From an uncultured Candidatus Saccharibacteria bacterium (GTDB lineage: Bacteria > Patescibacteriota > Saccharimonadia > Saccharimonadales > UBA4665): a stretch of 32,911 nucleotides of DNA. Under the pieces are notes generated by a model. That model worked only from the letters and a program-made list of their open reading frames with translations, was not told the origin of the DNA and searched no databases. The position numbers and the translations under genes were made by a program. Shown here piece by piece: positions 1 to 30,795 of this stretch. How positions within the stretch are numbered: position 1 is the stretch's first letter; each line of letters opens with the position of its first letter. The stretch is from positions 1 to 32,911 of the forward strand of contig CAYRVE010000001.1 in NCBI GenBank assembly GCA_964427685.1. Direction: 5' to 3'.

Positions 1-65
1 GAGACTTGTTGTTTATGAGATAGGCTGTTGAGTAATGATTCAATAGATTGGCGTAAGGTTTTCAT
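1..65 (-). CDS. Partial CDS, 5' end only (the body lies left of the window). Paralogue of the Ala/Ser/Tyr-repeat protein gene at 1566..2030.
   Basis: ATG at 65..63 overlaps the TGA of ORF 62..427 (ATGA coupling). It reads MKTLRQSIESLLNSLSHKQQVS. nt 1..55 are identical to nt 1960..2014. Confidence 0.6.
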   Translation of the reverse strand, partial: MKTLRQSIESLLNSLSHKQQV

Positions 66-427
66 GCAGTAGTTCGTCTTTTCAACAATAGTCTCTCTAA
101 TGGAGTCAACATCATTAAATACTTTTTTCTTAAATCGTAAACTTTTTGAACAAGTTCGCCTTTTTCCGACAAATTATTAAAAACCATGGCTTTGCCTATT
201 GCGTTTTTCGCTAACAAATAATCAACCGAAGATTTTTTATCATCGTCTAGTGCATTTTTGAAAACAAACTCAGAAAGCGCGTTTATCTCTAAAGCACTGG
301 CATCATTTATTGGATTAAAATCTTTTTTTCCGAACATAATCAACATTTCCTTATAGAACTCAACTTCCATATCGAGTTCCATTATAAAGGAAAAAAGATA
401 GTTTAGATCCTCCGATTCCATGTTCAT
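62..427 (-). CDS. Hypothetical 121-aa protein with an acidic N-terminus, translationally coupled to the MoxR-like ATPase
   Basis: ORF track. Its ATG overlaps the TGA of 424..1557 (ATGA) and its own stop overlaps the next ATG. No motif recognised. Confidence 0.6.
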   Translation of the reverse strand: MNMESEDLNYLFSFIMELDMEVEFYKEMLIMFGKKDFNPINDASALEINALSEFVFKNALDDDKKSSVDYLLAKNAIGKAMVFNNLSEKGELVQKVYDLRKKYLMMLTPLERLLLKRRTTA

Positions 428-1557
428 TTCTGTTCTTCTTTTTGAAGTCCTTTGGCGGTGCTTACGATTTCACGAACAGAAGCATCGTAGATAGGATCTA
501 AATAAAAATCACGAAAGACTTCATTTCGATTGCCATCTTTAAACAAAGCCAGAGAACTAATGAGTTTAAAGGCAATGTCCTTAGGAACAGTCTTTAGAAA
601 TCCCATTAAATTCGCTTTTTCTTTTTTAGAGAGATTTTCTTTTGTTTCATCTCGTTTCATGATTTCTTCTCTTACGTTATCACATGTCAAATTGAGACAA
701 CTAGCTATGATATCATTACCATCGCTCCATTTCTTGATGAGATCAACCTTTTTACCAGACAAAACTTCATTGGCTGTCAATGGTTTGTCCTGCTCTTTTA
801 AGAATTGTAAATAAGCCACGGTTCTTTCCAGCCCAATAATACCGTGCATTAATTGCTCAAGTAAATGTTGCGGAGTGTTTAGCTTAAATAGTTTATTGAG
901 TCGTGTATATGCCCTACGATCTGGTTTAACAGTCTCTCTGAGACTAAACTCGCTGTGTTTCTGCTCCAACAACTCTGGCTGGTTTTTGATGAACTCGATT
1001 AGAGTGTGATCTATGTTTGTTTCCTTGGCATAAGTAATCCATTCGTCAATAGTAGGCTCTAGTTTAATATGAACGAAACGCGCCATCAACGCCGTCTCAT
1101 TTACATCTGTGGTGAAGTACTCATCTGTAGGAGGATTACCAGCAGCTACTATGTGACAGTTCTTAGGCAATTTCACTGTGTGAAAGGTTTTGTCTAATGC
1201 CAAAGAGAACATTCCGTTCAAGATATCGCGTCTAGCCCTATTAAACTCATCTAAAAATATGACGGCTCCTGAATCTGGGTTTTCATTGCAATACTTAATT
1301 GTATTGTGTAGCCATTGTGGAATAGCGAAATTCGTGGATTTCGTACCATCTCCGTTGTCAACGAATTCTTGGAGTCCTAGGATATCCCCTAAATCTGATT
1401 GAGTACCGAGATAAAACGGGAAGAAATGATAGCCTTTTGCCTCGGCGTATTGTTTCACAATGGTAGATTTACCAATCCCGGCATGTCCCCAAATGAAAGG
1501 TGTGAGTTCTGCTTCGAATATGTACTCGAGACTTTCTTTTAGATCTTTGATATTCAT
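424..1557 (-). CDS. MoxR-like AAA+ ATPase (AAA_5 type)
   Basis: Walker A GHAGIGKST, Walker B IFLDEFNRA (MoxR-style DE-x-NRA). 377 aa. Strong RBS AGGAGGAAATATG that overlaps the stop of the upstream gene. Confidence 0.8.
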   Translation of the reverse strand: MNIKDLKESLEYIFEAELTPFIWGHAGIGKSTIVKQYAEAKGYHFFPFYLGTQSDLGDILGLQEFVDNGDGTKSTNFAIPQWLHNTIKYCNENPDSGAVIFLDEFNRARRDILNGMFSLALDKTFHTVKLPKNCHIVAAGNPPTDEYFTTDVNETALMARFVHIKLEPTIDEWITYAKETNIDHTLIEFIKNQPELLEQKHSEFSLRETVKPDRRAYTRLNKLFKLNTPQHLLEQLMHGIIGLERTVAYLQFLKEQDKPLTANEVLSGKKVDLIKKWSDGNDIIASCLNLTCDNVREEIMKRDETKENLSKKEKANLMGFLKTVPKDIAFKLISSLALFKDGNRNEVFRDFYLDPIYDASVREIVSTAKGLQKEEQK

Positions 1558-1565
1558 ATTTCCTC

Positions 1566-2030
1566 CTAATAGTTTATGTCTAACAATAACATCTCTAGCT
1601 TATCGAACTTCGCAATCTCTGTACAGAGATAGGCGTAATAATGTTTCATTTTGATATCATATTCTTCATTAGAGGCAGAGGCAGAGGCAGAGGAGACAGA
1701 GGAGACAGAGGAGGCAGCACGGGAGGCAGTATAAGAGGCAGAGGCAGAGGCAACATGGGCAGCATAAGAGGCAGCAGCAGAGGAGGTAGAGTAGGCAGCA
1801 TAAGAGCCAGCATGGGCAGCATAGGCAGCAACTAATTCCTCATTTGATACGTTTTCTCCGTTTAGCCATCTCTGAACTAAATCGATACAGAATTGGGCGT
1901 TTTTCCTATGCTTAGGATCTAGATATTGGAATGAGTCCTTAGCACAATACAATGCAAAAGAGACTTGTTGTTTATGAGATAGGCTGTTGAGTAATGATTC
2001 AATAGATTGGCGTAGGTTTTTTGTAGTCAT
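1566..2030 (-). CDS. Ala/Ser/Tyr low-complexity repeat protein with a conserved helical N-terminal domain (function unknown; possibly immunity-protein-like)
   Basis: Start moved to ATG 2030 (MTTKNLRQSIESLL...). The TTG-initiated extension to 2057 runs through a hairpin plus T-run. The N-terminal ~75 aa is helical (LYCAKDSFQYLDPKHRKNAQFCIDLVQRWLNGENVSNEEL), followed by AAYAAHAGSYAAYSTSSAAASYAAHVASASASYTASRAASSVSSVSSASASAS. Confidence 0.6.
   Translation of the reverse strand: MTTKNLRQSIESLLNSLSHKQQVSFALYCAKDSFQYLDPKHRKNAQFCIDLVQRWLNGENVSNEELVAAYAAHAGSYAAYSTSSAAASYAAHVASASASYTASRAASSVSSVSSASASASNEEYDIKMKHYYAYLCTEIAKFDKLEMLLLDINY
1671..1830. repeat. Degenerate hexamer/nonamer tandem repeat tract (GAGGCA, GAGGAGACA and GCAGCATAAGAG units) inside CDS 1566..2030
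   Basis: Read directly: agaggcagaggcagaggcagaggagacagaggagacagaggaggcagc..., then gcagcataagaggcagcagc / gcagcataagagccagca. Purine-rich on the plus strand. Several frames are open on both strands. Confidence 0.85.
1960..2020. repeat. Direct repeat copy B of window positions 1..61 (55/55 identical, then a 1-nt indel, then 6 more matching nt)
   Basis: Base-by-base comparison of 1..55 with 1960..2014. Both copies encode the first ~20 codons of paralogous minus-strand genes. Confidence 0.9.
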
Positions 2031-2055
2031 AACACACACCAGGGGGCATAAAAAC

Positions 2056-2078
2056 AAAAAAAGCCCGTGACTACGGCC
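2056..2078 (-). terminator. Weak intrinsic-terminator-like hairpin plus U7
   Basis: The minus strand reads GGCCGUAGUCACGGGC followed by UUUUUUU. The stem is 5 bp with one bulge. It lies ~25 nt upstream of ATG 2030. Confidence 0.35.
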
Positions 2079-2158
2079 AAACTGCCTATTATAAAAACTT
2101 CAGGATACAAGAGTATTAATATAATTATTGATTGTAATTCCACTATGTCTCCAAATAC

Positions 2159-2187
2159 ACAATAACTTATCGGAGGATTATTTTCAA
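2159..2187 (-). promoter_or_regulatory. Sigma70-like promoter candidate TTGAAA-N17-TATTGT carrying a conserved spacer box
   Basis: Minus strand: TTGAAAataatcctccgataagtTATTGT. The spacer box ATCCTCCGATAAGTTA is identical to the one at 4763..4778. Confidence 0.4.
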
Positions 2188-2220
2188 ACTTTAATTGATT
2201 TTTTGTATTATTTTGATACT

Positions 2221-2385
2221 TTAAAGTTTTTCTATCTTAGCCAAAGTCTTTTTGAGATCAATATATAGGAACTTGCGATACCCAGTTTCTCTATTCTTGT
2301 GCTTATCTGGAGTCTGAGACTGGAGTTTTTGTTTCAAGGACTCGACATATTTTACTAGACTGGCTTTTTTGTCTTGAGCGTTCAT
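2221..2385 (-). CDS. Hypothetical small basic protein (54 aa)
   Basis: Start moved to ATG 2385 (MNAQDKKASLV...), preceded by AGGAGA. The longer track ORF would overlap the stop of 2394..3617. Confidence 0.5.
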   Translation of the reverse strand: MNAQDKKASLVKYVESLKQKLQSQTPDKHKNRETGYRKFLYIDLKKTLAKIEKL

Positions 2386-2393
2386 TGTGTCTC

Positions 2394-3617
2394 CTAGGCA
2401 GACTTTCCCCATTTTTTGGGCTTTGCTTTAGTTCTTATTTTACCTTTAAGTTGTAAGTATTTACCGTAGGCTTCGGATTTTGGTTGGCTGAATCCAAGAC
2501 CCTTGCACCAATAGTCGTTTCTAAGTAAGGTTCTGGCTACTCTCCTCCAAGAAGGAGCAAAATGTAGGTTTTCTACGTCTCTATCGACTTCATCTGGAAT
2601 AACAGAATATCCTCTCTTAGTCCATCCACCAAAGAACCTTTTGATTCTCGCGGTGTAATGATCAGCAGTCTTGCGCGGTAAGCTTTTCAATAAAACTTTC
2701 GAGTATTGCTCCCAGGTCATGCCTTCTGGCTTGCTTATCTTTCCTTCGCCTGTCATATTACCACGTTCTTTGGCGTAAACTGCGTAAGAATTAGCTCCTA
2801 TCACCCTATTTATGAGCTTACTCCATGTATCCGCTTCTAAAATGCTATAAAGCCACAGCCCTCGTCGTTGAGTATCCCCATATGGCTGGCACAGGCGCTG
2901 CTCTTTCATAGGAACACCAGCCATTTGCATCTTATCGTATATCTTATTATGGGGTTTATCTAGATATAAGGAATGATATTTCCAAATATCTGAGGCTTTC
3001 CAGTCATATATAGGATAGGCATTATAGCTTGTCTTGCCTATTTTAGTAGTCCAAGATGTCCCGTCTATAGTACCTTCTTTTTTAAAGACAGCTACAGTTT
3101 TATACCGATTCAGACTCTCATCAGCCCTGATACCAACAATAGCACAGGATTTCTCATTCCCGCCGTACCACTCGCCAAATAAAGGTACGAATTCTTCGAA
3201 CTCCATTCCTGGAACATAGAAATCATATTGCGATAGATTACTAGCATACTTAGGTTTAGGTCTAACCCAGATATCTTCTTTAGTGGAATCCCAAGCTTTC
3301 CATTGTGGTTCATATACGGAAGTGGCATTGCGCAAGGAGATTTCAGCGCATACCCAATGTAAGTCAATGTTATCTTTATACATTTCAACTAACTGTTCAA
3401 GATTTGTTATCGTATCTTTATACTGGGCTTCTAAATCTATTATGAGAACGCCAATTCTCCTATTTCTTTTCATAGCTTCGTCCATCACTAAATGAAGTAA
3501 AACCGTGCTGTCTTTACCGCCAGACAGAGACACAAAGGGGTGCGGTACTTTATCTAAAATCAGGTTGATTCTATCTTTGGCGGCTTGTAAAACGTTGACA
3601 TTTAAGGGCTTAATCAT
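2394..3617 (-). CDS. PAPS-reductase / PP-loop ATP-pyrophosphatase family protein, IbrA/DndC-like with a long C-terminal extension
   Basis: PP-loop SLSGGKDSTVLLHL near the N-terminus. 407 aa with a C-terminal region of the DUF3440 type. RBS AGGAGA. Sits directly downstream of the ParB-like gene. Confidence 0.8.
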   Translation of the reverse strand: MIKPLNVNVLQAAKDRINLILDKVPHPFVSLSGGKDSTVLLHLVMDEAMKRNRRIGVLIIDLEAQYKDTITNLEQLVEMYKDNIDLHWVCAEISLRNATSVYEPQWKAWDSTKEDIWVRPKPKYASNLSQYDFYVPGMEFEEFVPLFGEWYGGNEKSCAIVGIRADESLNRYKTVAVFKKEGTIDGTSWTTKIGKTSYNAYPIYDWKASDIWKYHSLYLDKPHNKIYDKMQMAGVPMKEQRLCQPYGDTQRRGLWLYSILEADTWSKLINRVIGANSYAVYAKERGNMTGEGKISKPEGMTWEQYSKVLLKSLPRKTADHYTARIKRFFGGWTKRGYSVIPDEVDRDVENLHFAPSWRRVARTLLRNDYWCKGLGFSQPKSEAYGKYLQLKGKIRTKAKPKKWGKSA

Positions 3618-3624
3618 AAGTCTC

Positions 3625-4743
3625 CTAAAACAGGTCAGAGTCTCGGGCGCTAAAGGCTTCCTCTATAGTAACAGGTTTCATATTCCTACCTACTAACCAT
3701 TTGTTGAGATGCTCTAACGCCAGCATATTAGCTGCTGTCTGCGTCTCAGTAGGAAGTTTAGAGAAACCTCCTCTATAGGCGGATGGAAGTCCTAAGGCAG
3801 CACAGGCCGCAGCTTGTCCTATCCAGGCAATTCGGTTCATTGAGGAATTCGTAAGGTTATGCTCACACGAGCTAGGCCATTCTTTGAAAACCTTGGTTAT
3901 ACCAGCGGAGAATCTCTCTTTGTCCGCCAGAAACACTCCGTACTCTTGTTCACACTCTTCTTTGTCTCTACCTTTAATGCCAGGAGCAAAGAATCCTGCT
4001 GCTACGGCTTCCCACTTATCAAACGTGTGGAAAATCCTAGATTTATCAGATGTATTTTGGGTTATAGCTGAATAGTCAGCTTCGAACTCTAACTCTGAAT
4101 CGTTAGATGCTGTATCGCTCTCCCATGCTTGAGAGAACTCAGCGTCGCTGAACAATCCAGAGAGTCCGGAGATTTGACAAAGACGAAGGACTTCATCTTC
4201 TTCCATACCTAACTCTTTGCAGATCCTGGCAGTTTTCCAGTTTCTGGCCTTGAGTTCCAGCACGATTTCGCTCATGGCATCGACGGAATGAGTTCCTCGG
4301 GCTCGGTTATGGCGGATTGTGGAAGCCATTCGATTCGATTTATTGATTTGCCGGTCTCTCACCGTGGTAACTGGTACGTAGCCATGAAGAGTGTCGGCTA
4401 CTTTCTGAGATTCCCTAGCTATCTTGCTACGGTGGAAGCCGTCGATGATCTCTCTACTAGAGTCCGTAATCCAAGTCACGATGGGTTGGGTATACCCGTC
4501 CTCAGATATGGACGTCTCGAGGAGTTTTAACTCAGTTGGCGCTACAGAGTTAGGATTATATTCATTTTTCTTCACTGTGTCGATAGGCTCCCATAGGACG
4601 AGGTCGATAGGACGGTCTTTCATGGGACTATAGTTGTGAAGCAAAGTACGAATTTTGTTAATAGTTTCGATACGTTGAGATGTTGGTAGAGATTCGAGTT
4701 GTTGAAATATCTCACTGCAATGATCGATTAGTGTTGGTTTCAT
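3625..4743 (-). CDS. ParB/sulfiredoxin-fold nuclease-domain protein, IbrB-like, with an unassigned ~150-aa C-terminal domain
   Basis: Motifs KNEYNPNSVAP, SISEDGYTQPIV, IIDGFHRS and IRHNRARGTH. RBS AGGAGGA before ATG 4743. Confidence 0.8.
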   Translation of the reverse strand: MKPTLIDHCSEIFQQLESLPTSQRIETINKIRTLLHNYSPMKDRPIDLVLWEPIDTVKKNEYNPNSVAPTELKLLETSISEDGYTQPIVTWITDSSREIIDGFHRSKIARESQKVADTLHGYVPVTTVRDRQINKSNRMASTIRHNRARGTHSVDAMSEIVLELKARNWKTARICKELGMEEDEVLRLCQISGLSGLFSDAEFSQAWESDTASNDSELEFEADYSAITQNTSDKSRIFHTFDKWEAVAAGFFAPGIKGRDKEECEQEYGVFLADKERFSAGITKVFKEWPSSCEHNLTNSSMNRIAWIGQAAACAALGLPSAYRGGFSKLPTETQTAANMLALEHLNKWLVGRNMKPVTIEEAFSARDSDLF

Positions 4744-4758
4744 GTATCCTCCTATTTG

Positions 4759-4787
4759 AGACTAACTTATCGGAGGATGCCTGTCAA
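4759..4787 (-). promoter_or_regulatory. Sigma70-like promoter candidate TTGACA-N17-TAGTCT carrying the conserved spacer box
   Basis: Minus strand: TTGACAggcatcctccgataagtTAGTCT, immediately after the terminator at 4795..4819 and ~15 nt upstream of the ParB RBS. Confidence 0.4.
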
Positions 4788-4794
4788 ACTTTAG

Positions 4795-4819
4795 AAAAAA
4801 GCCCTCTTATTAAAGGGCT
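4795..4819 (-). terminator. Intrinsic terminator
   Basis: Minus strand: AGCCCU-UUAAUAAG-AGGGCU followed by UUUUUU. The 6-bp stem is 4 GC. It lies ~40 nt after the stop of CDS 4858..5163. Confidence 0.55.
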
Positions 4820-4857
4820 GATATGATACAATACTCAATAGATCTGGTTTATCTCAT

Positions 4858-5163
4858 TTAACCTTCTGGTTTTTCCCCAACAGTGACGTCAAGGAAACTA
4901 ATTATTCTCATTAATCCTAATTCTATAAGTTCTTCTTCGCTTTTGCCAAGTACTTTCAATAAAGTGTCTAATCCTGATATACATCGGCGGTTCTTAGTTT
5001 TGACTACACACACGAACCGTTCTGTTGAGAACGATCCTTGCGATTTACACCACGATCTTATCTCTTCTATTCTAGCGAGTAGAGGTCTGACCTCCTCACG
5101 AAGGTACAGATATTCCTCGATTATACTGTCTATAAGCGGTTCTTCCGCACGGGAAACTCTCAT
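4858..5163 (-). CDS. Hypothetical protein (101 aa)
   Basis: ORF track. Its ATG overlaps the TGA of 5160..5741 (ATGA). Confidence 0.55.
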   Translation of the reverse strand: MRVSRAEEPLIDSIIEEYLYLREEVRPLLARIEEIRSWCKSQGSFSTERFVCVVKTKNRRCISGLDTLLKVLGKSEEELIELGLMRIISFLDVTVGEKPEG

Positions 5164-5741
5164 TTTGTTCTCCTATTCACCAGGGTATTCAACACCTCGT
5201 ATAGTCGTTCCTCGGGAAAGTTCTCTATTGTGAAGGTCTTATCCCCGTGTTTTATAACTAGCGGCGAGTCGACCCGGGTTTTCTTAGGCGGCTCTACTAT
5301 AGCTACAACAGGTGCTTTGGGGAGTTGTTTTATTGTGCCGGCTGGTAGTTCTCTCAACCTAGTGAACGGTTTAGGTGGATTAAACCGTATCAAAGCTTTG
5401 TTCGATACAGAAGCCAGGCCAATACTTTGCAAAGTAACAGTAATGTCTTTCAGCCCTCGAATACGGCCCTTTGAATCTCGCTCTAGTCGTCCCAAACCTA
5501 CACTAGCCATGAATTCAAGGACCTTTGCGTATTCCTCTTTAGCGAAGTTATAGCCTTCGGCTGCCATGGCTACGACTAGTGTGCTGAGCATGACTTGGCG
5601 GCGTGTTCTTTCTCGCATAGACCATGCCAAACAGACGGCAGCGAATGCGGGATTGATTTCAGCCTCTCCTTTAAGTCTGATCGCAAGCTCTTCTGGGCTG
5701 AATCGTCGGGTCTGAATCTGTCTTTGTACTTCTGTTTCCAT
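5160..5741 (-). CDS. Hypothetical protein (193 aa), possible winged-helix regulator
   Basis: Start moved to ATG 5741 (METEVQRQ...), preceded by AGGAGTAAAC. It is the first gene left of the divergent intergenic region. The function is a guess. Confidence 0.55.
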   Translation of the reverse strand: METEVQRQIQTRRFSPEELAIRLKGEAEINPAFAAVCLAWSMRERTRRQVMLSTLVVAMAAEGYNFAKEEYAKVLEFMASVGLGRLERDSKGRIRGLKDITVTLQSIGLASVSNKALIRFNPPKPFTRLRELPAGTIKQLPKAPVVAIVEPPKKTRVDSPLVIKHGDKTFTIENFPEERLYEVLNTLVNRRTK

Positions 5742-5871
5742 GTTTACTCCTAGTTTAGTAGCATAATCGCTACATAATGCTCTATTACAATTACTGTGCC
5801 AAGTCATTAAGCACTATACAAGCTTTGACGCTACGCAACAGACCTTGACGGTGTATCAGAAACATACAATT

Positions 5872-6087
5872 ATGGCAAAAAAGGGAAACAACGTGGATGA
5901 TGCAGAGCAAACATATAAACTAGATAAGATAGATATTTCTATTAGAAACATTATAAAAGAGTTGAAGGCACTGGAGGAAATGCAAGTCGACTGGCAGAGA
6001 TTGGAGTTGATGATTAAATTGAGCTGGGCGTTGGTAGAGGTGCTCCAAGAAAAACAAGCCTTAACGCATATAGACTTGGAGCACTGA
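5872..6087 (+). CDS. Hypothetical coiled-coil protein (71 aa), on the opposite strand to its neighbours
   Basis: ORF track. ATG 5872 (MAKKGNN...) is preferred over TTG 5845. The start is uncertain and there is no clear SD. Confidence 0.4.
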   Translation: MAKKGNNVDDAEQTYKLDKIDISIRNIIKELKALEEMQVDWQRLELMIKLSWALVEVLQEKQALTHIDLEH

Positions 6088-6179
6088 TGTACGACTCAGT
6101 GTATTGGATATTCTACGGGTTTTGGATACTAATAATTATAGCTGTGCTATTTGCATTTCTAAATGGAGGAAGAGACTAG
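6087..6179 (+). CDS. Candidate 30-aa hydrophobic membrane peptide
   Basis: Its ATG overlaps the TGA of 5872..6087 (TGATG). Reads MYDSVYWIFYGFWILIIIAVLFAFLNGGRD. Below the ORF-track size cut-off. Confidence 0.3.
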   Translation: MYDSVYWIFYGFWILIIIAVLFAFLNGGRD

Positions 6180-6382
6180 CCTCTCATGAAACTCCAGTGT
6201 TTTTCTATCATGGAAGCGATTTCATCATAGCATTCCGCATGAAGATGCTTCTTGGCTTTGTGTTTTTCGGCGCGGCGAATGACGCAGTATTCTCTTAGAG
6301 AATATAAAAACTTTGAATTGGCGTCATTTGCTGATTTTTTGTAGTCTTCGTAAGATTGTTCGAGTGGATGTCCTGTATTCAT
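6176..6382 (-). CDS. Hypothetical basic protein (68 aa)
   Basis: ORF track. GAGG lies 5 nt before the ATG. Promoter candidate directly upstream. Confidence 0.55.
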   Translation of the reverse strand: MNTGHPLEQSYEDYKKSANDANSKFLYSLREYCVIRRAEKHKAKKHLHAECYDEIASMIEKHWSFMRG

Positions 6383-6397
6383 TTTGACCTCGGGCCG

Positions 6398-6426
6398 ACT
6401 ATATTTGAATTTAGCCCCCGTGTCAA
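6398..6426 (-). promoter_or_regulatory. Sigma70-like promoter TTGACA-N17-TATAGT
   Basis: Minus strand: TTGACAcgggggctaaattcaaaTATAGT. It abuts the U-tract of the capsid terminator. Confidence 0.5.
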
Positions 6427-6452
6427 ATAAAAAGCCTCCTTGGGAGGAGGCT
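6427..6452 (-). terminator. Strong intrinsic terminator downstream of the major capsid gene
   Basis: Minus strand: AGCCUCC-UCCCAA-GGAGGCU followed by UUUUUAUUU. 7-bp stem with 5 GC. Confidence 0.7.
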
Positions 6453-6465
6453 CTTAATTTAATGC

Positions 6466-7764
6466 TTAAGCTGACAGAGAAACTACACAGTTCCAGCCTG
6501 GAGCCGAGCAGATCAAGTTACCATAGTAGCCAATCCTGATCTCAAGAGCATCAGCATTGCCTACGCGCAAGCCTTCCAAGCCTTCCATCCCGTAAGTCAG
6601 AATATGTGGAACTTTGCCCAATGAGCGAAGTTTCCAAGTATTCATGGTGAGGAGGTAAGCAGTTTGCGGAGGACACGATCGGTCAGCCAGGATCGTTACA
6701 CGACCGTAAGCAGACTGGAACGTAATACCTTCGAAAGCGACTTCAACTTCGTCGTGATTTACCTGGACGTACTGGACCTTAGCGCCGAGAGCGTTAACCA
6801 ACGATGCATAGGACGAGAAGTCCATGATGCAAAGATCAGGTTTGCCGCCTTCACGGTTCAGGAATGCCAATGCGTTGGTGAGACCTTCTTCGATGGTGTA
6901 AGAAGCAGCATTGAATCTGCAACCAGCCAAGCGAGTCGGATCAGCCGAACGGTTAACGCCCCAAAACGAGTCAGTCGAACTAGGAGTGGTGACAGGAAGC
7001 CAAGCAGCCAAACCGCTCAAAGCCAAGAAGCTCGAAGTAGTAGAAGCGCCACCCGACGGAATATCGCCAGAGACCGAGAGAAAAGCCGAACCACTACCGA
7101 TTGCCCAGTTACCAGACAAGGAGCTAGCCGAAGCCGTACCGGTGACGATACCGTTGGCACGATCAACTGCAGTAATAAGCACTGTATCAGTTGACGGTGC
7201 GCCGCCAGCAGTAGCAGAAGCAACGAGAAGCATTCCAACTTCGAACTGAACGATCTGTTGAGCGTTAGTCAAAGGAAGGACTGTTCCGCCGACGACTGTA
7301 CTATTCTGAGTCGAAGCAGAGGTCGATGTTCCACGAGTCGCAGTACCGTCTCCGAACAATTCAAAAGCGATGTTGTTCGTAATGTTACGGAAACCGCCGT
7401 CCATTTGGAGTTTTGCAGCATCAACGAACGCTCCTGCGTTAGTCTTAGTCTGTTCCATAAGGAGGTTAGTGATCGTAACGAGTTGATAGTCTTCGATTAC
7501 ATACACGAAGTACGAAACGAGGCTCGTCGGTGTCTGTTGGTTCTGCGCATTAGAGAAGCTATGGCTTCGTCCTTGCGGAGCACCGTACTCGAGAGGAACA
7601 GGGATGTATTTTCCTGCGAATCCGTCCGGGCTTTCGTTCTTAGGGACGAGAGCAAGGAAGGGGTTTTCCTTATACACGAGATCTTTCATGTACTCTTTAT
7701 CATCTGTATAGAGTTCTTTTAGTGCCGCGATTTGGTTGGCACTGTTTGCATATGTAGCAGCCAT
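6466..7764 (-). CDS. Major capsid protein (presumed HK97 fold)
   Basis: 432 aa, directly after the scaffold-like gene in portal-scaffold-capsid order. Visibly higher GC. Strong terminator downstream. The family was not identified by motif. Confidence 0.75.
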   Translation of the reverse strand: MAATYANSANQIAALKELYTDDKEYMKDLVYKENPFLALVPKNESPDGFAGKYIPVPLEYGAPQGRSHSFSNAQNQQTPTSLVSYFVYVIEDYQLVTITNLLMEQTKTNAGAFVDAAKLQMDGGFRNITNNIAFELFGDGTATRGTSTSASTQNSTVVGGTVLPLTNAQQIVQFEVGMLLVASATAGGAPSTDTVLITAVDRANGIVTGTASASSLSGNWAIGSGSAFLSVSGDIPSGGASTTSSFLALSGLAAWLPVTTPSSTDSFWGVNRSADPTRLAGCRFNAASYTIEEGLTNALAFLNREGGKPDLCIMDFSSYASLVNALGAKVQYVQVNHDEVEVAFEGITFQSAYGRVTILADRSCPPQTAYLLTMNTWKLRSLGKVPHILTYGMEGLEGLRVGNADALEIRIGYYGNLICSAPGWNCVVSLSA

Positions 7765-7811
7765 TGCTGTTACCTTTCAAAGTAAGTTAAACTAGCGAAC
7801 TAGCACCATTG

Positions 7812-7825
7812 CTAGATGCATCTAG
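7812..7825. promoter_or_regulatory. Perfect 14-bp palindrome CTAGATGCATCTAG in the scaffold-capsid intergenic region
   Basis: Read directly. Flanked by CCA...TGG and preceded by the tandem AACTAGCG/AACTAGCA (7790..7805). Four CTAG sites fall in 34 nt. Confidence 0.6.
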
Positions 7826-7857
7826 TGGATTTCTCTGCCGATTTCTCGGACTCACGA

Positions 7858-8901
7858 TTAATCCTTGAGGCGTCCTTCCATTGCTGCTATGGCTCGTTCA
7901 CGATTAGTTAGCTTACGTGTACTGCTAATAGCGTTAGTAAGGGTTTTGGCTTGTCCTTGTTGGTGTGTCTGCTCTTTCGGTTTGGCTGTCTCAGTTGGTT
8001 TGGGCTGGCCGGCTTGTTCCAACTGCCGTTTAATTTTTCCAAGTCTAGTTAATTTCATGGCTTCCTCTACGAGGTAATTTTCTACTTCCTGACACGCCTC
8101 TTCTACTGGCATGACATAGCCATCTTGCTTATATGTTTCCTCGATAAGCTCTACGACGTCAGAGATAGACTTCGTGGCTTTAATCGTTTCGAACTGAGGG
8201 TCCATAGTCACGATTTGGCGAACATCAGTCTCGATTTGCTTTACAGCGGCTTTATAAGCATCCTGCTGTTGTTGGGACTGTTGTTGTTTGCCTTCATCAA
8301 TTGTGCTCTTTAAACTATTAATCTCTTGTTTCAAGGCATTAATCGTGGCTTCTAGCTGTGGGTTGATACTCGGCTGATTCAGGATTTGCTGTGTGAGTTC
8401 ATCATAAGAAACACCTGAGTCTGCTAGGATACGAAGGGTGTCTTGTTTGAGTTGGTCTCTAGAAATATAGCCTTCGGAGTATTTCTGTTCTGTAGCCTTA
8501 ATAGCCTGTTCTTTGGCTTCAAGGGCAGCTTCTCTAGCCTTTATCTGTTGCTCTTGTTGTTGGGCCTTGGCGCGGAGTTGTCGTTCTTGTCTGGCTAGCT
8601 GAGCGAATTGGCGCTGAAGTGCTGGATCTTTCTCAGGCTTTACTTCTTTTGGAGTATCTTCAGTTCTAGCTAAAGTGTCTTCAATGGGTTGTTTTTCCTG
8701 CGGTTTCACTGCCGAGAGTTCTTCTGGGCTTATATTATTTGGATCTACTGAGTGATTCTCGGGTTGTCTTTGTTGTTCCTTGGGAGCATCGAAGGAGCTT
8801 TGTCCTTTGTTGAAGGCTTCTATAGCGGCTGAACGCTTCTGGCCTGAGTTTGTGTTCGTTGGTTGAATGGCTGCTGGACTAGATACTGGTGTGAGTTTCA
8901 T
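7858..8901 (-). CDS. Scaffolding protein (coiled-coil, Gln/Glu/Lys-rich)
   Basis: 347 aa between portal and capsid. Long heptad-like stretches (QRQFAQLARQERQLRAKAQQQEQQIKAREAALEAKEQAIK). Confidence 0.7.
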   Translation of the reverse strand: MKLTPVSSPAAIQPTNTNSGQKRSAAIEAFNKGQSSFDAPKEQQRQPENHSVDPNNISPEELSAVKPQEKQPIEDTLARTEDTPKEVKPEKDPALQRQFAQLARQERQLRAKAQQQEQQIKAREAALEAKEQAIKATEQKYSEGYISRDQLKQDTLRILADSGVSYDELTQQILNQPSINPQLEATINALKQEINSLKSTIDEGKQQQSQQQQDAYKAAVKQIETDVRQIVTMDPQFETIKATKSISDVVELIEETYKQDGYVMPVEEACQEVENYLVEEAMKLTRLGKIKRQLEQAGQPKPTETAKPKEQTHQQGQAKTLTNAISSTRKLTNRERAIAAMEGRLKD

Positions 8902-22073: not shown

Positions 22074-22445
22074 TCATTCCTTATACTTTTCGTCGGGACC
22101 AATAAACACTCTGTCCTTCATCCAACCAGACACATCTGTATCGTCCAGATAAACTAACGGCTTACTCATAATCTGATGTACATACGGCACTAAGTCAAGT
22201 GCCTGGATTACATTCCTAGCCCATTCATAACCGCCCCTGCTCCATACGAGGATATAACTACCCCTGTGATGCTCCTCTTTTAGAAGTCTTACCATAGCTT
22301 TATTAATTCTCACACGAATGTTCTTACCTGTCAATGGGTCTACTACATCTATTCTCTCTGACGCTGTAATAGTATCGCGCGTATGAATAATCAAGGTCCC
22401 ATCAACATCCACTGGGCGAATATTTTCTACTTTAGTGACTATCAT
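22074..22445 (-). CDS. Small HAD-superfamily hydrolase-like protein
   Basis: HAD motif I VDVDGTL near the N-terminus. Only 123 aa. Confidence 0.5.
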   Translation of the reverse strand: MIVTKVENIRPVDVDGTLIIHTRDTITASERIDVVDPLTGKNIRVRINKAMVRLLKEEHHRGSYILVWSRGGYEWARNVIQALDLVPYVHQIMSKPLVYLDDTDVSGWMKDRVFIGPDEKYKE

Positions 22446-22840
22446 TTCTTCTCCTGTTTATAGCGGTCATCAAGATCAGGCCGAGTATCTTCAAACTCTA
22501 GGATGAAAAACAAACAGCAGCAAGCATGGGCTAAGTGGCTTAATCCAGTCTCTGGATCTTTGTCTTCCCCGCCTATATAAGCGTAGAGGTGTCGGGCCGC
22601 AGCAGCTAAGGGGCGGCTCCAAACGAAACCACCGCGCCAGTTATGTGCAGAGTACTTCTTCTTTCCAAATGTCATTACCTGAGCAACTTTTAGAAGTGCC
22701 GTATTTGATAGAAGAGACATATCAGGTTTATCCTGATCATGTTTAATTCCTGTCATAGGTTTAGATTCTTCTTTTCTAAACTCGCTGTCTAATTCATGCG
22801 CACGGGCCAAATCAGCAGCTGGATTTTTGTATATATTCAC
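22442..22840 (-). CDS. MazG-like all-alpha NTP pyrophosphohydrolase of the DUF5664 (dATP/dGTP diphosphohydrolase N-terminal) type
   Basis: KHDQDKPDMSLL, FGKKKYSAHNWRGG and GEDKDPETGLSHLAHA fit the pattern I recall for this phage family. Confidence 0.65.
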   Translation of the reverse strand: MNIYKNPAADLARAHELDSEFRKEESKPMTGIKHDQDKPDMSLLSNTALLKVAQVMTFGKKKYSAHNWRGGFVWSRPLAAAARHLYAYIGGEDKDPETGLSHLAHACCCLFFILEFEDTRPDLDDRYKQEKK

Positions 22841-30175: not shown

Positions 30176-30265
30176 ATGGATAAAATCGTTATTATATCTA
30201 TTAGAATCGTTAATGAGCCTATAGAGGCTCTAGAATCAACGCAAATCAAGGAGGCCTTATCATGA
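30176..30265 (+). CDS. Candidate 29-aa peptide
   Basis: The ATG lies 1 nt after the upstream stop. Its stop overlaps the ATG of 30262 (ATGA). Reads MDKIVIISIRIVNEPIEALESTQIKEALS. Confidence 0.25.
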   Translation: MDKIVIISIRIVNEPIEALESTQIKEALS

Positions 30266-30795
30266 CACCCAAATTCAATAAAAACGAAATTTACATGGTT
30301 ATAGTGTTCTCAATAGTCACTATAATCTATCTAGCATTTTTCATGAGTTGTTTGGGTTGTAGTAGCAACCAGCCCAATCCTTACCAGCAAGTCATAATGC
30401 CAACTATTACACCGTTAATAGCCGGTTCTAGATCGGATTGTGTTTTTGGAGGCGTAGACATTAGTTGGAACGGGACTCATACTGAGATTTGTAATGGATC
30501 TAATGGTGCACAAGGACCCCAAGGCGAAACAGGTGCTGCGGGTCCGCAAGGACCTCAGGGAACGTCGGGAAATCCTGGAACAACAATAGCTATTATAACC
30601 TTTTGTCAGGGCGTAACTCCTCAATATCCTGGAATATTTCCAGAAGTAGGATTTTGTATTAATGGAAATATATACGCCGTATACTCTGCTAATGATGGAT
30701 TTTTAGCGGAAATAGAACCTGGAGTATATCAGTCTGACGCTATTAGTTCGGTGTGCACATTTAGAGTCTTACCTAATTGTCAGGTCACGCAGTGA
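30262..30795 (+). CDS. Membrane-anchored or lipoprotein-like protein with a collagen-like Gly-X-Y repeat
   Basis: RBS AAGGAGG. TM/signal VIVFSIVTIIYLAFFMSCLGCSS. Ten GXY triplets at nt 30496..30585 (GSNGAQGPQGETGAAGPQGPQGTSGNPGTT). Confidence 0.65.
   Translation: MTPKFNKNEIYMVIVFSIVTIIYLAFFMSCLGCSSNQPNPYQQVIMPTITPLIAGSRSDCVFGGVDISWNGTHTEICNGSNGAQGPQGETGAAGPQGPQGTSGNPGTTIAIITFCQGVTPQYPGIFPEVGFCINGNIYAVYSANDGFLAEIEPGVYQSDAISSVCTFRVLPNCQVTQ

Follow-up and report, generated by a model that had tools for sequence, protein, structure and literature searches.

The DNA analysed here (the window) comprises 32,911 nucleotides of contig CAYRVE010000001.1, assigned to an uncultured Candidatus Saccharibacteria bacterium, and carries phage genes, among them the two adjacent minus-strand genes between positions 2,394 and 4,743 that are the subject of this study. 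The first of them encodes an IbrB-like protein of the ParB/sulfiredoxin (Srx) fold extended by a C-terminal domain (CTD), the second an IbrA-type enzyme of the 3'-phosphoadenosine-5'-phosphosulfate (PAPS) reductase superfamily. Judged from sequence comparison, the pair is a module of the IbrAB/YbdNM family, and the locus is a self-contained, translationally coupled operon representing a three-component form of this family. We regard the family identity and the three-part composition as very likely. The parts of the two genes are the following (aa, amino acids; NTP, nucleoside triphosphate; HTH, helix-turn-helix; pLDDT, predicted local distance difference test):

3625..4743, minus strand: gene for the IbrB-like ParB/Srx protein fused to the CTD, 372 aa
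4294..4611, minus strand: ParB/sulfiredoxin-fold NTP-binding domain (aa 45-150), with the motifs NPN, DGYTQP, DGFHR and RHNRARG.H
4129..4293, minus strand: HTH-like three-helix segment (aa 151-205), resembling the DNA-binding domain of ParB/KorB; acidic, pI 4.7
4042..4128, minus strand: disordered acidic linker (aa 206-234), pI 4.05, pLDDT <50
3628..4041, minus strand: CTD (aa 235-372, 138 aa), an all-alpha domain of a family without a Pfam model
3622..3626, minus strand: Shine-Dalgarno sequence AGGAG of the IbrA gene, overlapping the ParB stop codon
2394..3617, minus strand: gene for the IbrA-type enzyme, PAPS_reduct plus DUF3440, 407 aa
3507..3524, minus strand: PP-loop SGGKDS (aa 32-37), invariant in every aligned homolog
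2931..3539, minus strand: PAPS-reductase-like adenine-nucleotide alpha-hydrolase domain (aa 27-229), from Pfam
2433..2675, minus strand: basic C-terminal tail module of IbrA (aa 315-395), W.KRGY..IPDE...APSWRR..LLRNDYWCKGLGF

A previous reading of this DNA from its letters and translations (the sequence-only reading) had described two adjacent minus-strand genes with the ribosome-binding site of the second lying over the stop codon of the first, and both open reading frames (ORFs) and the overlap were found as described. At the junction (CTG TTT TAG GAG ACT T ATG) the ParB stop codon TAG occupies positions 3627-3625 and the ATG of IbrA lies at 3617; the position of AGGAG over the ParB stop codon implies translational coupling of the two genes.

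The ParB-like protein, its C-terminal domain and the IbrA enzyme

The sequence-only reading based its assignment on the motifs KNEYNPNSV, DGYTQPIV, IIDGFHRS and RHNRARGTH of the first protein and SGGKDS of the second. All of them are present and invariant or nearly so in the alignments of 36 and 38 homologs on which motif conservation was judged; in the ParB domain this applies to N63-P64-N65, D82-G83-Y84-T85-Q86-P87, D101-G102-F103-H104-R105 and R144-H145-N146-R147-A148-R149-G150. One homolog, a 637-aa protein with ParB and CTD (P0272), carries an intein-like insertion (C...HN) inside the invariant DG(Y/F)|TQP motif, which we therefore read as a functionally critical site. Profile support for the two predicted folds was divided, because IbrA exceeds the cut-offs of both of its Pfam families, whereas the Pfam model ParB_N reaches only 19.3 bits on the ParB protein (cut-off 26.3), although the latter matches phrog_2159 at 7e-64. 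The fold itself is borne out by structure prediction. In the AlphaFold model (pLDDT 79 overall) an N-terminal helical hairpin is followed by the ParB/Srx domain, the HTH-like segment, the acidic linker and the all-alpha CTD, and the region of about aa 45-205 matches KorB (8qa9, E 1.9e-6), ParB (7bm8) and Noc (7nfu) in Foldseek, each with a probability of 1.0. The ParB domain also matches phrog_498, a family of ParB-DNA-methyltransferase fusions (6e-10). The nucleotide bound by the ParB fold differs between lineages (ATP, GTP or CTP), and fusions of this fold to methyltransferases are frequent in phages (PMC12704722).

The C-terminal domain of the ParB protein had been noted earlier as unassignable, and it is so with every library used. 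No match was obtained in Pfam and PHROGs, even at permissive E-values, nor in a profile search of PDB sequences; the CTD-only model (pLDDT 95.5, predicted template modelling score 0.89) found nothing significant in the PDB with Foldseek (best E 3.1, TM <=0.33) and a single match in BFVD, an uncharacterised 116-aa protein that is most likely, from its size and identity, the homolog of Pseudoalteromonas phage XCL1123. In the full-length model the folded part of the CTD comprises aa 235-366. Among 80 diverse members E245 and N303 are invariant, and H239, W244, W289, S292, E294, N299 and Q310 are 84-97 % conserved; on account of this set of residues the CTD looks like a defined pocket and not like a mere spacer.

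The domain is, however, not peculiar to this ParB protein, as the earlier description would suggest, but is widespread and can stand alone. A word-indexed search with 10 matches had made it appear rare, a view that was overturned by an exhaustive hidden Markov model search yielding 792 representatives at 50 % clustering, mostly stand-alone proteins of 120-145 aa, with some ParB fusions and one member with an intein. The stand-alone homologs start exactly at an R-I-(F/Y)-H motif, and those found always lie beside an IbrA gene. Among cultured phages the CTD occurs in Microcystis phage Mwe-JY13, where it is a coding sequence of its own, in Pseudoalteromonas phage XCL1123 and in the Mycobacterium phages Gaia and Nebkiss; none was found on plasmids. 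In Gaia the homolog is gp106 (hhalign probability 99.8 %), and gp105, which had been considered for this role, was rejected. A relationship of the CTD to the neighbouring Imm5-like ORF was likewise rejected (probability 0.3 %).

In CTD-family members of about 220 aa, Pfam detects the end of DUF3440 in a C-terminal tail, which is 42-43 % identical to aa 315-395 of the window IbrA (E 3e-15 and 3e-12), that is, to the tail of the enzyme, which is strongly basic (pI 10.4 and a charge of +15 for aa 315-407). One such protein is encoded in a four-gene block, CTD plus tail, IbrA, ectoine-synthase-like (EctC-like) cupin and ParB, beside DNA polymerase and ThyX. From these likenesses we infer that the IbrA tail is a mobile module, probably for nucleic-acid binding or docking, and the sharing of the tail suggests a common partner for the CTD protein and IbrA. 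The presence of IbrA and ParB in all 80 viral loci with a CTD (see below) and the copying of the IbrA tail onto CTD proteins lead us to read the CTD as a third subunit. We could not find an earlier description of this third component or of the shared tail module, which would be a new part of the system.

The IbrA protein is recognised by Pfam as PAPS_reduct (2e-17, 64.2 bits, cut-off 22.5) and DUF3440 (2e-30, 106.3 bits, cut-off 25) and matches phrog_2302 at 4e-76. Single-sequence searches of the PDB gave no match; by profile, the nearest solved relatives of the catalytic domain are CysD, which is closest, eukaryotic FAD synthase and PAPS reductase, all of them adenylyl-transferring or adenylyl-binding enzymes. 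The PP-loop, D61/E63, R164-x-x-E167-S168-L169-x-R171 and Y-P-x-Y-D-W do not vary in an alignment of window-type proteins with those of Microcystis, E. coli, Streptococcus, Mycobacterium and Pseudoalteromonas phages (31-61 % identity), and SGGKDS and R-x-x-ESL-x-R are likewise invariant among homologs from phages and bacteria, even at identities as low as 31 %.

Distribution, gene order and relatives of the module

At the nucleotide level no relative of window positions 1-8000 was detected by megablast among 50,697 phage records. By tblastn, both proteins occur in essentially the same set of about 224 of these records (Flavobacterium 90, Mycobacterium 60, Streptococcus 21, Arthrobacter 12, Bacillus 8, and others), several of which carry the annotation 'IbrA/IbrB, co-activator of prophage gene expression'. 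Among cultured phages Mwe-JY13 is the closest relative (59 % and 49 % identity), and in metagenomes the fused 372-aa form is abundant, with >100 clusters at 52-100 % identity. The identification of the pair as IbrB-like ParB plus IbrA, already proposed by the sequence-only reading, is supported by Escherichia phage PhiR5_2, whose annotated IbrA is 40.9 % identical to the window IbrA over 98 % of its length (E 4e-92) and whose IbrB is 47 % identical to the window ParB over aa 25-207 (E 9e-48). IbrA/IbrB of E. coli (ECOR-9 island, prophages) and YbdN/YbdM of strain K-12 belong to the same two families and are likewise encoded by adjacent, co-oriented genes. In contrast to the window protein, E. 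coli IbrB and YbdM lack the CTD; in the E. coli type ibrA precedes ibrB and IbrB has two domains, ParB/Srx and HTH, in about 170-215 aa, whereas in the window the ParB protein with its CTD (372 aa) comes first and IbrA second.

We compared the gene neighbourhoods of the best-scoring 80 bacterial loci found with the IbrA profile and the best-scoring 80 IMG/VR loci found with the CTD, two sets that are biased towards relatives of the query. A ParB gene adjoins IbrA in 79 of the 80 bacterial loci, and all 80 viral loci encode both IbrA and ParB, with ParB and CTD fused in 72 and encoded by separate genes in the same order in 5. The CTD is present in only 4/80 bacterial IbrA loci. Loci without CTD show the opposite order, ibrA then ibrB, which was found in 75/80 of the bacterial set. 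A group of four loci (L006-L009) had seemed to lack ParB and to carry a DnaA_C protein upstream instead; this was rejected, as their ParB is a 214-aa gene after IbrA.

Further genes recur within or next to the module. Loci L003/L004, L012, L013 and L014 have a fourth, optional component, an ectoine-synthase-like (EctC-like) cupin (PF06339, 9e-42), whose place is between IbrA and ParB or, in gp104 of Mycobacterium phage Gaia, in a fusion with ParB. In 20 bacterial loci (L107, L132, L152-L175, mostly metagenome-assembled genomes of Clostridia) a protein of about 125 aa without a Pfam match adjoins IbrA, mostly between IbrA and ParB, and one of its members has a GNAT-like R-x-K-G-Y-A motif. An SNF2 helicase gene abuts IbrA directly upstream in 13 non-enterobacterial bacterial loci. 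DUF7768 genes follow the module in two lineages.

ParB plus PAPS-reductase pairs in phages are known and will not surprise specialists; their function is a long-standing gap. In accordance with the view that the phage-borne pair has no established role, no functional or biochemical study of IbrAB was found in the literature searched (Iyer et al. 2013 (NAR) and Maindola et al. 2014 lay outside its scope), and surveys of Dnd, BREX (bacteriophage exclusion) and the ParB-CTPase fold do not treat the pair (PMC10853773, PMC12839542, PMC12704722). IbrAB/YbdNM-type pairs nevertheless occur in hundreds of cultured phages, including those of dairy Streptococcus and fish-pathogenic Flavobacterium as well as mycobacteriophages, and in many bacteria including E. 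coli K-12, and annotation as a rule labels them wrongly, as 'PAPS reductases' of sulfur metabolism or as 'partition proteins'.

A possible role in DNA modification and its alternatives

The genomic context of the module points to DNA metabolism. In the window all genes from about 29.7 kb down to position 62 lie on the minus strand, in the order RecA/UvsX-like protein, SbcCD, MazZ-like diphosphohydrolase, primase-helicase, PolA, terminase, portal, SU10-like capsid protein and module. The module, which had been placed in an accessory island apart from the replication genes, is not intrinsically a cargo of such islands, and its position after the capsid gene is shared with close relatives only. 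In most other lineages it lies in the replication/recombination region, namely after a helicase gene or beside primase/RecT/YqaJ, exonuclease/helicase, PolA/ThyX or NinG/RusA genes. What is constant across loci is the module itself, and its neighbours belong to DNA metabolism.

We consider it probable that the parts of the module act together on nucleic acid. More tentatively, and with somewhat less than even confidence, we propose an NTP-gated, ATP-dependent modification of DNA that serves the self-protection of the phage. IbrA would spend ATP to activate, by adenylylation, a group on a nucleic acid, for which phage DNA is the most probable candidate, while its basic tail would hold it on the polymer. 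The ParB/Srx domain would be the NTP-dependent switch or loader that licenses this reaction, a role with conceivable parallels in DndB, SspB and DpdB with their partner enzymes and in the GTPase CysN with CysD. The CTD and the IbrA tail would share a docking partner or surface, and the CTD would provide specificity or the group that displaces AMP. The resulting mark would shield phage DNA from host nucleases; it could also change transcription and in this way account for the 'co-activator' phenotype in E. coli.

In Dnd, Ssp and Dpd systems, members of the ParB superfamily work alongside DNA-modifying enzymes of the PP-loop type or of other kinds (PMC10853773, PMC12707154, PMC12839542). In DpdA/DpdB and in phage ParB-methyltransferase fusions the ParB-fold NTPase is an accessory or loader of a DNA-modifying enzyme (PMC12839542, PMC12704722), although the partner there is a transglycosylase or methyltransferase, whereas in the window it is a PP-loop enzyme and neither a tRNA-guanine transglycosylase nor a methyltransferase is encoded. 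The proposed modification of DNA is further supported by the recombination and replication genes beside the module in other phages (primase, RecT/YqaJ, PolA, ThyX, exonuclease, RusA/NinG, helicases), by the SNF2 helicase gene upstream of IbrA in bacterial loci, the match of the ParB domain to phrog_498, the near-universal linkage of the two genes and their translational coupling, the invariant PP-loop, the intein in the DGY|TQP motif of one homolog, the occurrence of the CTD both fused and as a separate gene beside IbrA, the +15 tail and the copy of this tail on CTD proteins.

Several points weigh against this proposal. To our knowledge, the only experimental phenotype of the family is transcriptional: IbrAB reportedly activates the eib genes in E. 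coli, as Sandt et al. are said to have described in 2002. PP-loop enzymes act more often on tRNA or small molecules, and the closest solved relatives of IbrA, CysD and FAD synthase, adenylylate small molecules. The HTH-like segment of the window ParB is acidic and may not bind DNA, and in one lineage a gene for an Rv2179c-like protein of exoribonuclease type lies inside the module. Finally, E. coli K-12 ybdNM is chromosomal and repressed by the LysR regulator YbdO/CitR, and no DNA-modification phenotype of ybdNM is known (PMC9068703).

A narrower version of the proposal takes the CTD as a third subunit with a new all-alpha fold and the IbrAB machine, widespread in phages and prophages, as installing a new, non-sulfur, adenylation-dependent DNA mark, for example an aminated or substituted base or backbone position, in a reaction gated by the ParB-fold NTPase. 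We hold this version to be doubtful; if true, it would represent a hitherto undescribed class of DNA modification and anti-restriction chemistry in phages and would explain the 20-year-old 'co-activator' phenotype of E. coli IbrAB. DNA modification in general, if true, would provide new chemistry for phage anti-restriction and a potential tool. The third component, the mobile basic tail and the lack of support for Dnd sulfur chemistry leave fewer hypotheses and call for a different way of reconstituting the system. Tractable model phages with all parts are Microcystis phage Mwe-JY13, Pseudoalteromonas phage XCL1123 and, with gp103-106, Mycobacterium phage Gaia.

Alternatively, the module might be a transcriptional co-activator or anti-silencer that leaves DNA covalently unchanged, the ParB-fold protein acting as an NTP-dependent regulator of the KorB/VirB type with IbrA and the CTD as cofactors. 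The name of the family and its reported eib phenotype speak for such a role, as do the best structural match, which is the transcriptional repressor KorB, and the location of the pair near antirepressor or lysogeny-control genes in temperate phages. The CTP clamps KorB, ParB and Noc indeed show the same succession of a ParB-N and an HTH domain as aa 45-205 of the window protein; they possess, however, a C-terminal dimerisation domain and a GERR-type Box II, where the window protein has an unrelated CTD fold, DGFHR (an equivalence aligned by eye) and an acidic HTH segment. None of the window ORFs that were scanned proved to be a ParA gene, and no search for parS was made. A purely regulatory role would leave both the catalytic PP-loop, invariant across phyla, and the obligatory enzyme partner unexplained, and the acidity of the HTH segment and the occurrence of the module next to replication genes in apparently lytic phage genomes also argue against it. 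We consider this explanation unlikely.

Another explanation is a minimal phosphorothioation system, with IbrA in the place of DndC or SspD, IbrB in that of DndB or SspB and sulfur delivered by the host IscS, which would put a phosphorothioate into phage DNA. The DGxHR-type motif of the window ParB presumably resembles that of DndB. In DndB/DndC and SspB/SspD a ParB-superfamily protein is paired, as in the window, with a PP-loop enzyme of the PAPS-reductase superfamily that acts on DNA (PMC10853773, PMC12707154), and host IscS is able to replace DndA (PMC10853773). In addition, IbrA shows weak local matches to models of DndC and BrxP and possesses one near-invariant cysteine, C371 (WCKGLG), in its C-terminal tail. 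However, the match to the DndC model TIGR03183 amounts to 25.9 bits against a cut-off of 290.4, that to the PADLOC DndC model to 27.9 bits as a local match only, and that to PADLOC BrxP to 22.9 bits over 70 residues only. DndC ligates a 4Fe-4S cluster by three cysteines and has a cysteine dyad besides (PMC10853773). In the IbrA family, the E. coli phage protein has Ala in place of C90, the Gaia/XCL1123 and Streptococcus groups have other residues in place of C243, and C371 gives way to Ala in one homolog and is missing from the copies of the tail on CTD proteins; the loss of the first two in whole lineages and the lack of strict conservation of the third are incompatible with a DndC-type Fe-S site or dyad. 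The PP-loop is therefore common to IbrA and DndC/SspD, but the Fe-S cysteines, the dyad and the partners DndA/D/E or SspA/C are found in Dnd and Ssp only. No desulfurase, DndD/E or SspC-type ATPase is linked to the module in the 160 loci, and neither these nor PglZ, tRNA-guanine transglycosylase or methyltransferase genes were found in the window or among the recurrent neighbours in the 80 bacterial loci; BREX genes (PglZ, BrxC and others) are likewise absent from the window and related loci. Dnd-type phosphorothioation chemistry is accordingly unlikely, and we give this explanation a small chance. Of the DndC-type assignment made in the sequence-only reading, membership in the PP-loop superfamily stands, and by the model scores, which for DndC, BrxP, CysH and CysD lie about 10-fold under the respective cut-offs, IbrA is 'DndC-like' at this level only.

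IbrA might also modify or repair RNA, in particular tRNA, in the manner of TilS, ThiI or TtcA, for instance to evade host anticodon nucleases, with its tail binding RNA. Most characterised PP-loop enzymes of nucleic acids act on tRNA, IbrA shows a weak match to the N-terminal part of TilS, its tail is basic, and the exoribonuclease gene embedded in the module of one lineage (Rv2179c-like, 3'-5') would fit. This is set against an obligatory partner of the ParB fold, which points to DNA in all known partnerships, a neighbourhood made up mostly of DNA replication and recombination genes, and the absence of tRNA genes from the window. An RNA substrate is in our view improbable.

A further explanation is an adenylyltransferase for host takeover or counter-defence. 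The acceptor of AMP would be a small anion or nucleotide, the ParB-fold NTPase would drive the reaction in the manner of CysN, and a metabolite or signal would be made or destroyed in this way. It draws on CysD and FAD synthase being the closest solved relatives and on the small-molecule and protein kinases SerK and Srx among enzymes of the ParB/Srx fold (PMC12704722). In the CysD/CysN ATP sulfurylase the unfavourable reaction of the adenylyltransferase CysD is driven by its partner NTPase, a conceivable analogy to the pair in the window, although CysN is a translational-type GTPase and the window partner has the ParB fold, IbrA reaches only 28 bits with the CysD model (cut-off 195), and DUF3440 and the basic tail are present in IbrA only. 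The strongly basic tail and the DNA-metabolism neighbourhoods favour a polymer as substrate, and no transporter or metabolic partner is linked to the module; there is little likelihood of a small-molecule substrate.

The usual reading of phage PAPS reductases in databases and phage papers, an auxiliary metabolic gene of the CysH type that boosts assimilatory sulfate reduction of the host (PMC10434257, PMC11318856), is effectively refuted for IbrA by the scores of the CysH models (TIGR02057, 25.9 bits against 254; TIGR00434, 24.1 against 165) and by the absence of the ECGLH tail, in whose place stands WCKGLG, not strictly conserved, and it is further opposed by the full ATP-type PP-loop, the obligatory ParB linkage and the DUF3440 region with its basic tail, which it would leave unexplained.

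Regulatory elements and neighbouring genes

Upstream and downstream of the two genes the following elements were recorded:

4794..4819, minus strand: terminator-like hairpin and U-run, 8-bp stem, 4-nt loop, free energy (dG) -11.1 kcal/mol, z -2.89
4749..4793, minus strand: box A, promoter-like, TTGACA at 4787-4782, spacer TCCTCCGATAAGTTA, weak -10 TAGTCT
2221..2412, minus strand: 63-aa ORF overlapping the IbrA stop codon, probably co-transcribed, without a counterpart in relatives
2149..2193, minus strand: box B, second promoter-like copy, TTGAAA-17-TATTGT, ending in GGAG

The hairpin (4819-4800, minus strand) is followed by the U-run and then by box A, which continues into the ribosome-binding site AGGAGG (4753-4748); the whole element, 4819-4794, closes the upstream, capsid-side transcription unit. 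The module had been described as transcriptionally insulated and as bracketed by two copies of one box. The bracketing was confirmed and extended: boxes A and B agree over 45 nt with 78 % identity (4749-4793 and 2149-2193), and their 15-mer core TCCTCCGATAAGTTA occurs exactly only in these two places in the whole window, against a chance expectation of 0.06. This core is absent from 180 related loci, and we therefore take the promoter box for a regulatory element of this phage and not of the module. With regard to insulation, the upstream terminator and the TTGACA hexamer were found, but the -10 element is weak and no terminator was found between the module and box B, so that the module is insulated on its upstream side only. 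The small ORFs 3' of IbrA show no homology between lineages, and the 63-aa ORF thus probably lies outside the system. Scans of the region for Rfam families, tRNA genes and tandem repeats gave nothing relevant to the module.

Box B heads the next unit, which consists of a 38-aa hydrophobic ORF, an Imm5-like gene and an AAA_5 ATPase. The 38-aa ORF (2027-2143, minus strand; MELQSIIILILLYPEVFIIGSLAVVTGFFCFYAPWCVL) is strongly hydrophobic, starts 5 nt after the GGAG of box B and may encode a small membrane peptide heading this unit. The Imm5-like ORF (1566-2057, minus strand; Pfam 1.6e-5) contains an Ala/Ser-rich region derived from imperfect 9/12/57-nt tandem repeats (1677-1823). A second Imm5-like paralog, whose ATG at position 66 (minus strand) overlaps the stop of the ORF 62..427, runs off the left edge of the window, and bases 1-62 are 97 % identical to 1960-2021.

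On the other side of the module, the capsid gene is immediately succeeded by a bidirectional GC-rich hairpin terminator (6433-6452), after which comes the sigma-70-like promoter that scores best in the region (6426-6398, minus strand; TTGACA-17-TATAGT, 11/12 matches). Further away, a 177-aa ORF (30262-30795, plus strand) has Gly-X-Y repeats of the collagen type over a short stretch, with a match to PF01391 (1.7e-5) that stays under the cut-off. A 132-aa ORF (22442-22840, minus strand) carries the MazZ-type dATP/dGTP diphosphohydrolase domain PF18909 (1e-32; phrog_801, 2e-43). The MazZ-type family is known from phages with 2-aminoadenine (Z) genomes; PurZ was not seen in the window, and the contig is probably only part of a genome of about 58 kb. 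The MazZ-like ORF hints at nucleotide-pool manipulation in the same phage.

Downstream of the module, the ATPase (424-1557, minus strand) is of the MoxR/AAA_5 type (phrog_1297, 4e-60). The same region of a related 58-kb contig (L015, 11018-12169) encodes a DUF2201 (VWA-type) protein and an N_methyl pilin-like protein, and the DUF2201 protein in this position suggests a MoxR-VWA pair in this phage group.

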